The position numbers were made by a program, and so were the translations under genes. From sequence record MH051918: a stretch of DNA of 50,048 bases; one strand, 5' to 3'. The notes under the pieces are model-generated. The model ran no database searches. It saw nothing but the letters and a program-made list of their open reading frames with translations, and was not told the DNA's origin. Source of the DNA: Escherichia phage vB_EcoS_IME347. Below are positions 19,174 through 23,533 of this stretch, in pieces. Position 1 is the stretch's first letter. Every line of letters starts with the position of its first letter.

Positions 19174-19836
19174 ATGCATTTACCTAACGGTTCTCAAATT
19201 TTCATCGGCTCCACCGTCGCTAATGCTGTAGATGTAACCAACGTTAGCAACGCTGTCGATCCGGTTTTCTCAATGGCTGACACCTCCGGCTTTTCCGAAA
19301 ATGACTACGTTATCGTAACGTCTGCCGCTTGGGGCAAACTTCAGGATCGAGTCCTGCGCGTTAAGTCCGTAGCTGAGGGCGTAAGCGTAACTCTGGAGGG
19401 TATCGATACAACCGATACTAACGTTTTCCCAACTGGCACCAACCCGGCGAAGATTGCGAAGATTACCGCATGGACTGAAATCCCTTGCGTTCAAGATCTT
19501 TCTCAGGACGGCGGCGAGCAGCAGTTTTACACGTATCAGTGTCTGTCCGACGATCAGGAGCAGCAGTTACCGACGTTTAAGTCTGCCGTGTCTCTGACTT
19601 ACACCTTTGCGCACGAATTTGATAACGCGATTTATCCGATCCTGCGCAAACTGGACGAGTCCGGCGACGTTACCCCGCTGCGAATGTTCATCCCTAAAGC
19701 GCGAGAAATGCGCCTGTGGGCTGGTATCTTGTCTTTCAACGAGATTCCGCAGACCAGCGTTAACGAAATGGAAACTGTTTCTTTGTCCGTTTCCCTGAAA
19801 GGTAAATTCACCTTCCTTTCTTCCGAAACTGAATAA
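19174..19836 (+). CDS. major tail protein (putative, V-like position)
   Basis: 220-aa ORF directly upstream of the chaperone/tape-measure block; followed by an intrinsic terminator. Confidence 0.6.
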   Translation: MHLPNGSQIFIGSTVANAVDVTNVSNAVDPVFSMADTSGFSENDYVIVTSAAWGKLQDRVLRVKSVAEGVSVTLEGIDTTDTNVFPTGTNPAKIAKITAWTEIPCVQDLSQDGGEQQFYTYQCLSDDQEQQLPTFKSAVSLTYTFAHEFDNAIYPILRKLDESGDVTPLRMFIPKAREMRLWAGILSFNEIPQTSVNEMETVSLSVSLKGKFTFLSSETE

Positions 19837-19843
19837 TCCCAAT

Positions 19844-19868
19844 GGGGGCGCTTGCGCTCCCTTTTTTG
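19844..19868 (+). terminator. intrinsic terminator after the major tail gene
   Basis: GC stem gggggcgc-ttgc-gcgctccc followed by a T6 run; an extended -10-like TGTAGAAT lies just downstream. Confidence 0.6.
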
Positions 19869-19948
19869 TTTCTGTAGAATCACTGTATCAAATCAATACG
19901 GCGCTGTTTTAACAAAAAGTGCTATCACACCAATCAGGAGAAATGACA

Positions 19949-20263
19949 ATGGCTAAATTCAAGTTCACTCTGGGCGCACTGCCTGACTTCAAACTTCCAG
20001 TATCGTTCAACATGCCGAACGGCGAAGAAGGTCGAATCGTGTTTACCGTTAAGCACAAGACCGCCGCAGAGATTCAGGAGTTATTCCAGAAAGGTGCGGG
20101 CGATAAAGATTTCGTGATGGAATTGGCTGTGGGTTGGGATATCGCGGACGACGAGTTTAACGAAGAGAACGTAGAGCGACTGATCAACTATTACCCCGGC
20201 TCAATGCTCGCACTGACTCAGGCATACATGAAGGCTCTTGCAGGTCAGCGCGTAAAAAACTAA
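19949..20263 (+). CDS. tail assembly chaperone (G-like)
   Basis: ATG 8 nt after CAGGAG; 104 aa; located between the major tail and tape-measure genes; ends at a slippery A AAA AAC site. Confidence 0.6.
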   Translation: MAKFKFTLGALPDFKLPVSFNMPNGEEGRIVFTVKHKTAAEIQELFQKGAGDKDFVMELAVGWDIADDEFNEENVERLINYYPGSMLALTQAYMKALAGQRVKN

Positions 20264-20580
20264 AACGGGCGGTTTATCTGATGTATCAGAAGCCGCCCAC
20301 GGATGAAGAATTACGATCGGCTGGCTTATCCAGATCTGACTATGAAGGCGAGGAGCCGGAAGAGGTTATCGGCTCCGAAGATATGCTGAAGTCATGGGAC
20401 GTGTTTTGCGCTATGCAAACACAGTGGAGAAGCGCGGGAGCCGGGGCTTATGGCCTTGATTACAATGTCTTGCCGATGCTGTTCAAAATCTATAAAATAG
20501 ACGATGAAGAGCTAACGTTAAATGACGTGCGAGTTATGGAACAGAAAGCATTAGAAATGATGCACCATAACGCAAAATAA
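19949..20580 (+). CDS. tail assembly chaperone G-T fusion via putative -1 frameshift near 20254-20260
   Basis: Heptamer A AAA AAC at 20254-20260 in the G frame; the -1 frame is open from there through ORF 20281..20580; lambda G/GT paradigm. Confidence 0.45.
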
Positions 20581-20584
20581 CAAG

Positions 20585-20606
20585 CCGCCTTCGGGCGGTT
20601 TTTTTG
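20585..20606 (+). terminator. intrinsic terminator-like hairpin before the tape-measure gene
   Basis: gccgcc-ttc-gggcgg followed by a T7 run, then GGAGGA RBS. Confidence 0.5.
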
Positions 20607-20623
20607 TATCTGGAGGAATAATT

Positions 20624-23533
20624 ATGGTCGATAAAGTAGCGGGCTTGTCGCTTGATGTTGACGTGTCGCAAGTCGATCGCGCGGTGAAGTCCCTGAATCA
20701 ATTCGCCACGGCGAACGATAAGGCTGCGGACGCAACCCACGAGTTTTTGAACCAGACCGAGATTGCGAAGCAGAAGGCGAAGGCACACGCAAGCGAGCTT
20801 GCGAAACAGTCTCGCGAGTATGCATCAATCCAAAAGGCGATTGACCCGACGATCAGCAAAATGAACCAGCTTCGTGATACAGCGAAGTCCCTTGATTCTC
20901 TGTGGCAAAAGGGATTCATCCCGGACGATGAATTTTTCCGGCTGAGTGCAATCCTTGAGCAGCAGGAAAACGCGCTGAATAAGAATAAGCTTGCACTGAC
21001 TGAAGAGGGCAGGGCGGCGATCGAAGAGGGGAAGGCTAAAGACCGTGCGGCGGCGGCTGGCGACAAGTTCATAAAACAGTTGCAGGAGCAGGCTGCGGCG
21101 GCTGGCAAAACCTCAACGGAAATGCTGGAGCTAAAAGCGGCTCAGTTGGGCGTGTCCCAACAAGCAGCGCCATTCATCGCGCAGCTTAACGCTCAGTCAA
21201 AAGGGATGAAGCTTGCCGGGTTGTCTGCGGGGCAATACTCGCAAGCGATGCGAATGCTTCCGGCTCAGATTACGGACGTGGTGACTTCCCTTGCATCCGG
21301 TATGCCTGTTTGGTTGGTTGCAATCCAGCAGGGCGGGCAGATTAAGGACTCATTCGGCGGGATCGGTAATACGTTCAAGGTTCTGACTTCGTACATTACA
21401 CCGATGCGAATTGCTCTTGCTGGCACGGTTGGAGTTCTGCTCGGACTCGGTAAAGCGGCGTGGGATTCCTACGAGGCGAACAAGGCTCTGTCCGATTCGC
21501 TTATCCTGACTGGTAATTACGCCGGGAAAACTACAGGGGAGATTCGGGAAATGTCTGAGGCGATCGCGGACGGCACTAGCGCTACCGTTTCAACCGTTCG
21601 ACAGATTGCAACCGATTTGGTTAAGTCCGGGAAGTACACTGGCGATCAGATTAAAATCATCACGGCGGCAACTGCTCAGTGGTCTACGGTTACGGGTGAA
21701 TCCGCTGAGGAAGTGACGGGCTATTTCAAGAAGATTGCAGATGATCCGGTTCAAGGTCTTGCGAAGCTTAACGAACAGTTTAACTTCCTTGAAAAAGGTC
21801 AGTTAACCTACATTTCCGGTCTTGAAAAGACTCAAGGGACGACGGCGGCTGTTACTGCGGCGACGAAGCTTTTCGCTGACACGATGGAAACTCGGTTACA
21901 GAAGATTGCGGACTCCGCAACGCCTCTTGAAAAGATGTGGGCGAACATCAAGAAGTGGGCTTCCGACGCTTGGGGTTGGGTTGGAGATCACACTCGTGGC
22001 GCGTTGAACTTGATCATTGACGTTGTAGCCGGGACGGTTGAGCAGGTTCAGCTAATCCTGAACAAAGGCGACATTGTAATCGGTCAATTCATCGTTAGCG
22101 CTACGAAGGCGATGCAGAAAATTCCGGGGATGGGTGATGTTGGCAACGACATTATCAAGAATCAGGAAAAAGTGATTAACGACGCGATCGCCAACAACAA
22201 GGAGCTTGAGAAGTCCATCATTGAGCGTGACAAGCGGATTCGTCAAGGCGAAATGGGTTACATCAACTCCGAAGGGAAGGAAAACTTAGGCAAGAAGTAC
22301 GCCGATGAAACCAAGGAAGCCGTAGAGAAAGAGGCCGAAGCGCTCAAGAAGAAAGGGAAGGCTCAGAAGGTCATTGTAGATCAGGGCGACAAGATCACGG
22401 AGCAGTACAACGCCGATATCATCGCGCTACAGTCTCAGTTGGAAGTCCTGAAAGAGCACAAGACGATTAACGACTCAATTAGCCAGCAGCGCAAGACGCT
22501 ATGGAACGAGCAAGCGAAAGTTAAGGTTCTGGAGGAGGCTGCAACTCAGCGTGTACTGACGAAGGAAGAGAAATCCTATCTCGCCAACAAGGATAAAATC
22601 CTCGCGCTGGCTGAACAGAAAGCAATTCTCGGTGATCAGATTGTTGCTCAGCAGAAGCTTAACGCCCTGCAAGACGAGTCAACAAAGTACGTACTGAAGA
22701 TGGAGGCGCAGTCGAAATCAATTCGCGAAACGTCCGGCCTCGGTGATATCGCTGCGAAGCGACAAAGGGAACTGGATGAACTGAAGGCGTCATGGCAGGG
22801 CAAAGGCGGAAGTGAAGATGATCCGGCATTGCAGAAGATGATTGAAGCCCGGCAGAAAGTCTACGCCGATGAAGATGCGCAGCGTCAAGATTGGCTGGCT
22901 GGAGCGGAGGCGGCGTTTAACAACTACGGCGAAGCGGCAACCAACATGTATGACAATGTTGGTCAGGTTGCAAGCGAGGCGTTAAACGGAATGTCCACGA
23001 TGATGGCAGATTTTCTCATGACCGGGAAGGCCAACTTCGGAGACTTCGCGAAGAGCATTATCAGCATGATCATTAACATGATCACGAAGATGGTTCTGTT
23101 TAACTCAATCGCTGGCCTGATGGGTGGAAATACGTGGAGTTTTGCAGGTGGCATGGGTGGATTCGCTAACGGCGGTTACACTGGCGACGGCGGGAAGTAC
23201 GAACCTAAAGGCGTTGTTCACGGCGGTGAATTCGTATTCACCAAAGAGGCGACGAGCCGGATCGGGGTTGGAAACCTGACTAAGCTGATGCGCGGCTACG
23301 CTAACGGCGGCTCGGTTGGTAATGCCTCTCGCGGCACGGGGTTAACCCTTTCATCTTCATCCGGTCAGGGAACCTACGTCGATGTTAGCGGGATGAAGGT
23401 TGACGTTAATAACGGAAATGACCCTCGCGGCATGGAGCATGGGATCCGAATGATTTTCAACGAAATGATTAACGACGCTTGCTCTCAGGGTGGTAAAGTG
23501 TACAACTATATCAATGAGAAAACGGGAGGTTAA
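20624..23533 (+). CDS. tail tape measure protein
   Basis: 969-aa ORF, largely Ala/Lys/Glu/Gln-rich predicted coiled coil, with a Gly-rich C-terminal region (GGMGGFANGGYTGDGG). Confidence 0.85.
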   Translation: MVDKVAGLSLDVDVSQVDRAVKSLNQFATANDKAADATHEFLNQTEIAKQKAKAHASELAKQSREYASIQKAIDPTISKMNQLRDTAKSLDSLWQKGFIPDDEFFRLSAILEQQENALNKNKLALTEEGRAAIEEGKAKDRAAAAGDKFIKQLQEQAAAAGKTSTEMLELKAAQLGVSQQAAPFIAQLNAQSKGMKLAGLSAGQYSQAMRMLPAQITDVVTSLASGMPVWLVAIQQGGQIKDSFGGIGNTFKVLTSYITPMRIALAGTVGVLLGLGKAAWDSYEANKALSDSLILTGNYAGKTTGEIREMSEAIADGTSATVSTVRQIATDLVKSGKYTGDQIKIITAATAQWSTVTGESAEEVTGYFKKIADDPVQGLAKLNEQFNFLEKGQLTYISGLEKTQGTTAAVTAATKLFADTMETRLQKIADSATPLEKMWANIKKWASDAWGWVGDHTRGALNLIIDVVAGTVEQVQLILNKGDIVIGQFIVSATKAMQKIPGMGDVGNDIIKNQEKVINDAIANNKELEKSIIERDKRIRQGEMGYINSEGKENLGKKYADETKEAVEKEAEALKKKGKAQKVIVDQGDKITEQYNADIIALQSQLEVLKEHKTINDSISQQRKTLWNEQAKVKVLEEAATQRVLTKEEKSYLANKDKILALAEQKAILGDQIVAQQKLNALQDESTKYVLKMEAQSKSIRETSGLGDIAAKRQRELDELKASWQGKGGSEDDPALQKMIEARQKVYADEDAQRQDWLAGAEAAFNNYGEAATNMYDNVGQVASEALNGMSTMMADFLMTGKANFGDFAKSIISMIINMITKMVLFNSIAGLMGGNTWSFAGGMGGFANGGYTGDGGKYEPKGVVHGGEFVFTKEATSRIGVGNLTKLMRGYANGGSVGNASRGTGLTLSSSSGQGTYVDVSGMKVDVNNGNDPRGMEHGIRMIFNEMINDACSQGGKVYNYINEKTGG

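Follow-up and report, generated by a model that had tools for sequence, protein, structure and literature searches.

We describe the tail chaperone genes of Escherichia phage vB_EcoS_IME347 (sequence record MH051918), studied in a stretch of 50,048 nucleotides (nt) that is called the window below. The phage is a T1-like siphophage of the family Drexlerviridae. Between the genes of the major tail (tube) protein and the tape-measure protein it carries two overlapping open reading frames (ORFs), a G-like chaperone gene (G) and a segment in the -1 frame (T), in the order that is typical of phage lambda. The comparative evidence makes it very probable that ribosomes shift into the -1 frame at a slippery heptamer, A_AAA_AAC, at positions 20254-20260 and so make a fused product, GT, as in the G/GT system of lambda. 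This reading is supported because gene order, protein families, frame relation, heptamer, and conservation across phages all fit it. The locus adds one more ordinary case to the conserved frameshifts of tail chaperones, and close relatives have this site annotated already.

A first-pass annotation, made from the letters of the window alone, had proposed such a fusion of roughly 210 amino acids (aa). It had overlooked the hairpin downstream of the heptamer and the strictly conserved stop codon that abuts it.

The G-T junction and its predicted product

The junction includes the following features.

19936..19940, plus strand: Shine-Dalgarno (SD) sequence AGGAG of G, read from the sequence, with a spacer of 8 nt to the ATG at 19949
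19949..20263, plus strand: G-like tail assembly (tape measure) chaperone gene, 0 frame, 104 aa, Pfam Phage_TAC_4
20254..20260, plus strand: slippery heptamer A_AAA_AAC, with AAA (Lys) in the P site and AAC (Asn) in the A site
20261..20263, plus strand: 0-frame stop codon TAA abutting the heptamer and overlapping the rare -1-frame Leu codon CTA (20260-20262)
20260..20580, plus strand: T segment, -1 frame, 106 aa, beginning with LKRAVYLMYQKPPTDEEL; Pfam DUF1799
20267..20298, plus strand: RNA hairpin 6 nt 3' of the heptamer, a candidate stimulator of the frameshift
20281..20283, plus strand: ATG that opens the mechanically called ORF 20281..20580, judged not to be a genuine start

The most likely start of G is the ATG at 19949, which gives a protein of 104 aa. 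A ribosome-binding site is annotated in phages Stevie and U136B at the place equivalent to its AGGAG. In the 0 frame G ends with CGC (20249) GTA AAA AAC TAA (20261-20263), just as the first-pass annotation had read it, and the heptamer stands in the X_XXY_YYZ phase with the codons of G. The -1 frame is open from 20161, after a TAA at 20158-20160, through 20580, where it ends with a TAA (20578-20580). The overlap between G and the -1 frame is 100 nt. The open frame does continue into the ORF 20281..20580, as had been proposed, but the ATG of this ORF is not a real start of translation (see below).

The predicted fusion, join(19949..20260, 20260..20580), consists of G residues 1-104 followed by the 106-aa T segment. 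Its computed length of 210 aa agrees with the earlier estimate. The junction reads ...ALAGQRVKN-LKRAVYLMYQKPPTDEEL..., also given as ...AGQRVKN-LKRAVYLMYQKPP....

G matches the Pfam family Phage_TAC_4 (PF08748) over its full length (E 1.1e-33, 116.5 bits, gathering cut-off 21.1), and T matches DUF1799 (PF08809; E 3.9e-13, 49.9 bits, gathering cut-off 26). The profile of PHROG 17368 has 213 positions, of which G matches positions 1-107 and T matches positions 117-213. Since one profile matches both proteins, this family was built from fused products. The AlphaFold2 model of the fusion has a predicted local distance difference test (pLDDT) score of 89 and a predicted template modeling (pTM) score of 0.77. 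In the model a single helix, residues 83-113 (approximately 20195-20287 in the window), crosses the junction 104/105, and the recoding site would lie in the middle of a structural element, not in a linker. The top structural match of the model in BFVD is a 210-aa “tape measure chaperone” of Klebsiella phage Solomon (template modeling score 0.91), and the next matches are chaperone fusions from unrelated siphophages. The fusion sequence gave no hit to PDB chains at E <= 1, and a Foldseek search of PDB with the model gave nothing at E <= 0.001.

A_AAA_AAC is the sole in-phase X_XXY_YYZ heptamer in the 100-nt overlap; the remaining in-phase tetramers there are CCCC at 20194 and the two within the heptamer. 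The motif alone is not beyond chance, with 11 copies of AAAAAAC observed in the window and 16 expected. The chance of an in-phase AAAAAAC within a 100-nt overlap is ~0.004 (33 in-phase positions at a density of 6 plus-strand copies per 50 kb), and some X_XXY_YYZ would be met in about an eighth of such overlaps. It is therefore the protein identities and the comparison with relatives that carry the evidence.

Conservation of the junction in related phages

The closest database relatives of the phage in DNA are Sertoctavirus SRT8, BrunoManser, and Citrobacter phage IME-JL8, with an identity of only ~77-78%. We gathered 84 loci, 16 from annotated phage records and the remainder from IMG/VR. The IMG/VR loci were recovered via a peptide pattern in the N-terminus of G, so that the search was blind to the slip site. 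A second peptide pattern spans the junction, where the genomic DNA has one base less than the pattern requires, and thus could match none of it. The loci gave 62 distinct 123-nt junction segments, 59 of them usable, and individual columns were analyzed in 48 distinct 70-nt junctions.

The first-pass annotation had held that a lack of a conserved open -1 frame in relatives would speak against the fusion. Such a frame is conserved: of the 84 loci, 81 have T in the -1 frame with respect to G. This relation spans Drexlerviridae: Tunavirinae, Tempevirinae, Braunvirinae, the phiEB49 group, Webervirus, Sauletekiovirus, Kyungwonvirus, and Eclunavirus. The three exceptions, with an apparent “+1” relation, were excluded as low-quality contigs, whose frames are broken in several places or whose A-run is shortened (L063, L065, and L080, which are the IMG/VR uncultivated viral genomes (UViGs) 2974611450, 2706796530, and 2974632794, respectively). 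The breaks fall in both G and T, and L080 has a run of 5 A and a truncated T. Judging by these sequences, the three look like homopolymer or assembly errors or defective genomes. The identity between the window phage and its relatives is 40-64% for G (17 relatives) and 42-86%, thus higher, for T.

The position of the heptamer is occupied in the usable distinct junctions as follows.

AAAAAAC: 53 of 59
GCA AAG GTC (phiEB49 group): 5 of 59
G_GGA_AAC, in phase and followed by TAA (distant relative L018): 1 of 59

The motif owes its significance to its position and to this conservation. The run is of exactly 6 A in all 53 AAAAAAC junctions, and the C at the Z position is invariant in the relatives. 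With the stop codon, the core A_AAA_AAC_TAA has 10 nt and is invariant in nearly all relatives.

The columns around this core show where the selection on codons changes its frame. Upstream of the heptamer the variable columns of the 48 junctions are third positions of the 0 frame (20242, 20245, 20248, and 20251; 1.5-2.0 bits). Directly 3' of it they become third positions of the -1 frame (20265, 20268, 20271, 20274, and on). Because the variable columns swap phase at the heptamer, codon selection changes frame there. The next third position of the 0 frame, 20254, is a four-fold degenerate base (of GTA/GCA) that provides the first A of the heptamer, and yet it is A in 48 of 48 junctions. We also considered an SD-like stimulator ~10 nt upstream of the heptamer, of the type found in dnaX and in the insertion sequence (IS) IS911, and rejected it: the only candidate is AGGT at 20242-20245, the flanks vary freely (GCAGGT, GCGGGC, GCTGGT, GCCGGA), and the variability of the candidate positions 20242 and 20245 is 1.9-2.0 bits.

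Two kinds of variant sites were found. In the phiEB49 group (L075-L079; phiEB49, e4/1c, and kin) GCA AAG GTC TAA replaces GCA AAA AAC TAA (locus positions ~1500-1515, equivalent to 20252-20263 in the window). The slippery part is here only the tetramer A_AAG, which would give a fusion with the sequence ...RAK-G-LKRA. The -1 frame of T is retained together with LKRAVYL, and there is no predicted hairpin (free energy, dG, from -0.4 to -4.1). Shigella phage Sd1 (L067) is ~93% identical to phiEB49 over G-T, yet it has kept AAAAAAC. The other variant, in L018 (IMGVR_UViG_3300014203_000838, positions 788-797), is G_GGA_AAC followed by TAA in a G/T pair that is ~42% identical; its -1 frame opens only 28 nt upstream.

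Several database hits have unexpected host labels. The records MG0656xx (“Campylobacter phage A131/A13a/A118”) and OR786094 (“Streptococcus phage MBBL140”) contain an enterobacterial T1-like G-T region, ~69-73% identical, and their host labels, Campylobacter jejuni and Streptococcus agalactiae, look doubtful.

The proposed recoding mechanism and its alternatives

In the proposed lambda-type frameshifting most ribosomes would end at TAA 20261 and give the 104-aa G chaperone. A minority would slip one base back, with tRNA-Lys on AAA (20255-20257) and tRNA-Asn on AAC (20258-20260) re-pairing on AAA AAA (20254-20259). CTA (20260-20262) would be read next, and translation would follow the -1 frame to TAA 20578-20580, giving the 210-aa fusion. 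By analogy with lambda gpG/gpGT, the shared G part may bind the tape-measure protein and the T part (DUF1799) may recruit the tail tube protein. The low efficiency of A_AAA_AAC would set a G-rich G:GT ratio, and the abutting 0-frame stop (all usable relatives) together with the 13-bp hairpin (this lineage) probably raise or tune the slip. What the sequences show is the anatomy of the junction, the protein families, their conservation, and the change of frame in the selective constraint; that ribosomes slip, how often they do so, and what the stop and the hairpin contribute are inferred from these.

The first-pass annotation had pointed out that C at the Z position makes the efficiency of the site uncertain. 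This caution is fair, as A_AAA_AAC is a low-efficiency motif in E. coli (PMC4066793; PMC5009743). It is among the heptamers commonest in IS1 and IS3 elements, after A_AAA_AAG and A_AAA_AAA, and IS1, which uses it, is a proven frameshifting case (PMC4066793). It is also used for g-t frameshifting in haloarchaeal virus HCTV-2 (PMC5009743). The gpG:gpGT requirement in lambda is ~30:1 (PMC5009743). Since GT is needed at such a low ratio there, a weak site would be appropriate.

A 0-frame stop directly follows the heptamer position in 59 of 59 usable junctions, being TAA in 57 and TGA in two. In the TGA junctions (L026 and L027, AAAAAAC TGA) CTA has changed to CTG, which leaves both the 0-frame stop and the -1-frame Leu in place. 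For this Leu, CTA is used in 46 of 48 junctions with CTG as the sole substitute, although CTA is the rarest Leu codon in the long ORFs of the window (6.3%). Without TAA 20261, G would grow by only 5 codons. As the loss of the stop would cost G so little, its fixed position suggests a role in the shift. Plausibly, the abutting stop would make a slow-to-decode A site that favors the slip of tRNA-Asn from AAC to AAA.

The hairpin at 20267-20298 consists of 8 base pairs (bp), a 2-nt bulge, and 5 bp (13 bp in all) with a 4-nt loop, and it begins 6 nt after the heptamer. Its dG is -20 kcal/mol (z -4.5), and none of 200 dinucleotide shuffles was as stable. The same was true for 3000 synonymous recodings of the same peptide (0 of 3000 as stable, mean -6.0 kcal/mol). 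Equivalent hairpins (-13 to -20 kcal/mol, recoding p <= 0.013) are found in 27 of 48 distinct junctions, those of T1, TLS, Stevie, SRT8, JMPW2, and P-K7R among them. In the compared set, stability is highest for the hairpin of the window, which has one more G-C pair on its outer side and an inner stem of 5 bp. The junctions with a hairpin show no variation at the wobble sites 20268, 20271, 20280, and 20295 of the core stem, against 1.5-1.7 bits at their other wobble sites; as folding energy was used to define this set, the test is partly circular. Those changes that the stem tolerates do not disturb its structure, for example U-A to U.G at 20292 and changes of the outermost pair. On the whole, we lean slightly towards the view that the hairpin stimulates the frameshift.

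Several observations weigh against the reading given above. A_AAA_AAC is a poor shifter in E. coli, since tRNA-Asn cannot re-pair cognately on AAA (PMC4066793). The phiEB49-group relatives have GCA AAG GTC in place of the heptamer, hence the exact heptamer is not indispensable. The hairpin is absent in 21 of 48 junctions (including Rtp, CEB_EC3a, ES, phiEB49, Sd1, F20, AAS23, ESP2949-1, and Ec_L1), and the hairpin-less L038 and L040 share the RAVYL...KPP peptide. In a family-wide covariation test 67% of cells were paired, and compensatory pairs were no better than in shuffled or slid controls; the support for the hairpin is thus limited to the conservation of its sequence, and with no compensatory covariation its role is unproven. 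An experimental demonstration for any T1-like phage was not found in the searchable literature, and the support is all comparative.

If there were no recoding, T would be a decaying remnant and the heptamer a chance occurrence, for which one could cite the lack of AAAAAAC enrichment in the window. However, T is more conserved than G and has clear codon periodicity and a confident predicted fold, and the heptamer is invariant while neighboring synonymous sites are saturated; we consider the probability of this explanation negligible. It is very improbable, too, that T is an independent gene translated from ATG 20281 with no frameshift. An ATG-initiated ORF 20281..20580 is present, and its equivalent is a separate coding sequence (CDS) in the records of SRT8 and BrunoManser, but an ATG is possible at 20281-20283 in at most 3 of 48 aligned junctions (3 with A at column 43), and relatives have TAT, TTT, CAG, TTA, and other triplets there. 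No SD sequence was found upstream of this ATG, which lies within the -20 kcal/mol hairpin, at its top. From the G stop to the ATG the sequence encodes L-K-R-A, invariant in 13 fusions, and then V-Y-L, invariant or nearly so. The 21 nt 5' of the ATG thus encode LKRAVYL with wobble variation of the -1 frame, which means that they are translated. T is always exactly in the -1 frame in the usable loci. The frame switch, the conserved upstream codons, and the non-conserved ATG together exclude an independent initiation of T.

Transcriptional slippage is improbable as well. RNA polymerase would extend the A6 run (20254-20259) by one A, giving an mRNA that would read ...V K K L K R A... with T in frame. 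Productive slippage of bacterial RNA polymerase generally needs runs of ~8-9 or more. The homopolymer is indeed present, and such slippage is used by some IS elements and phages (PMC5009743), but the run here is only of 6 A and not a long one with conserved length. Moreover, the relatives with G_GGA_AAC and A_AAG_GTC have 3-base runs, enough for tRNA re-pairing only, and the conserved flanking C and the in-phase position fit the X_XXY_YYZ rule, not run length. The two mechanisms predict different junction peptides, VKNLK for the ribosomal slip versus VKKLK for the transcriptional one.

The same product could also come from a slip in the P site after translocation, not from a simultaneous slip in the P and A sites; we regard this as possible though somewhat unlikely. 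In this case tRNA-Asn on AAC, with the stop UAA in the empty A site, would slip to AAA in competition with the release factor. The constant abutting stop speaks for it, as do the sole change of TAA to TGA, which keeps both the stop and the -1 Leu, and the prevalence of the rarest Leu codon. The ending of G, which would gain so few codons, does not explain the fixed position of the stop, and the relatives with no hairpin would need another stimulator. On the other side stands the invariant A at the four-fold site 20254, which is expected if tRNA-Lys re-pairs too, i.e., in a tandem slip, although a tandem slip in the E and P sites explains it equally.

More tentatively still, the signal of Drexlerviridae may be a 10-nt cassette, A_AAA_AAC_UAA, that combines a poor heptamer, an abutting stop, and a rare CUA and acts by a post-translocation slip against the release factor. 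The G:GT ratio would then arise from termination kinetics, not from RNA structure. In this view the hairpin, present in 27 of 48 junctions, would have been added later as a booster in one lineage, and phages of the phiEB49 group would have exchanged their heptamer for a bare A_AAG tetramer. If this is true, the family is a naturally replicated set of frameshift-signal variants making the same protein.

Neighboring genes, known systems, and annotation

The G-T pair has the following neighbors in the window.

19174..19836, plus strand: major tail (tube) protein gene; Pfam Phage_tail_3 E 3.8e-64, phrog_584 major tail protein E 4e-92
19844..19861, plus strand: terminator-like hairpin with a T-run in the interval between the tail tube gene and G, found by pattern scan
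20582..20601, plus strand: terminator-like hairpin with a T-run in the interval between T and the tape-measure gene, found by pattern scan
20624..23533, plus strand: tape-measure protein gene, 969 aa; Pfam TMP_2 E 4.8e-66, Tape_meas_lam_C E 2.2e-22

The tape-measure gene starts at 20624, and synteny and protein families both bear out the lambda G/GT arrangement upstream of it that the first-pass annotation had recognized. A terminator is annotated in T1 and Stevie at the place matching 19844-19861. A T-run hairpin follows the stop of T in nearly all relatives; its stem sequences differ, and it is annotated in T1 and Stevie. The terminator-like hairpins that bracket the G-T pair suggest regulated read-through into the tape-measure gene. 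The arms AAGCCGCC...GGGCGGTTT of the terminator at 20582-20601 repeat the arms of the frameshift hairpin (20267-20298) in swapped order. A long-range pairing between the two was considered; most hairpin-bearing relatives have GCGCC/GGCGC terminators, so that the match is not conserved and is probably a coincidence.

A close parallel is lambda gpG/gpGT. Both phages have two overlapping ORFs between the major tail and tape-measure genes, the second in the -1 frame with no start of its own, and an X_XXY_YYZ heptamer near the end of the first ORF. In both, the isoforms share an N-terminal chaperone domain, and the tape-measure protein and downstream tail genes of the window phage are lambda-like. 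The lambda heptamer is G_GGA_AAG, and the lambda site is described as working with no required downstream structure. In contrast, here we find A_AAA_AAC, a 0-frame stop abutting it, and a strong hairpin 6 nt downstream. The proteins of the window also belong to other Pfam families (Phage_TAC_4 and DUF1799) and have no sequence match to solved structures. The lambda frameshift was described by Levin, Hendrix and Casjens (1993) and by Xu, Hendrix and Duda (2004, 2013, 2014) (reviewed in PMC5009743).

Frameshifts are annotated in the T1-like phages TLS (tfmA/tfmS), Stevie (CPT_Stevie15/16), and U136B (U136B_045/046). These genes are orthologous to those of the window, with G ~61-64% and T ~75% identical and the signal CGCGTAAAAAACTAAAACGGGCGGTTTATCTG...AAACCGCC identical or nearly so, and joined 210-aa CDSs are already in GenBank. 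In the TLS record the joined product is annotated as tfmS; the Stevie and U136B records have a joined “tape measure chaperone” at an identical sequence. The genome papers of Stevie and U136B mention the conserved frameshift, citing Xu, Hendrix and Duda 2004 (PMC4319613; PMC8104045). Unlike these phages, the window phage carries a non-conserved ATG in the hairpin loop and has the most stable hairpin.

Two further systems are comparable in their signals. IS1 insA-insB' has the same heptamer in an enterobacterial host, with proven low efficiency and a small amount of fusion (PMC4066793). It differs in its transposase context, and IS1 has no established stimulator (PMC4066793), whereas the hairpin and the abutting stop are present here. 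The signals of the E. coli dnaX and IS911 type consist of a heptamer and a stem-loop 5-9 nt 3' of it, and an SD-like element may precede them. They share with the present one a lysine-codon-rich heptamer and a stable stem-loop, here a predicted one, ~6 nt downstream. The differences are Z = C here, not G, and no conserved upstream SD-like element. In addition, the frameshift here lengthens the protein, whereas that of dnaX truncates it.

Against this background, the additions of the present work are modest: the 10-nt core A_AAA_AAC_TAA, the lineage-specific hairpin, and the natural variants of the site that the phiEB49 group and one distant relative have. The locus does not challenge current understanding and matters mainly for annotation. 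It is correctly described by two coding sequences, G (19949..20263) and GT, join(19949..20260, 20260..20580); to annotate a free-standing gene at 20281 is wrong. Many public records of T1-like phages present T as a separate or truncated ORF, among them those of T1 (NC_005833, 19339-19506), SRT8 (gp17), BrunoManser (bas12_0016), Rtp, and JMPW2. In RefSeq and PHROG both G and T are named “tail length tape measure protein”, a misnomer for chaperones.

The family as a whole presents natural variants of the signal within one host group. The hairpin is present or absent, the stop is TAA or TGA, and the slip site is A_AAA_AAC, A_AAG_GTC, or G_GGA_AAC. Such a compact set would be suited to tests of what boosts weak heptamers in bacteria.

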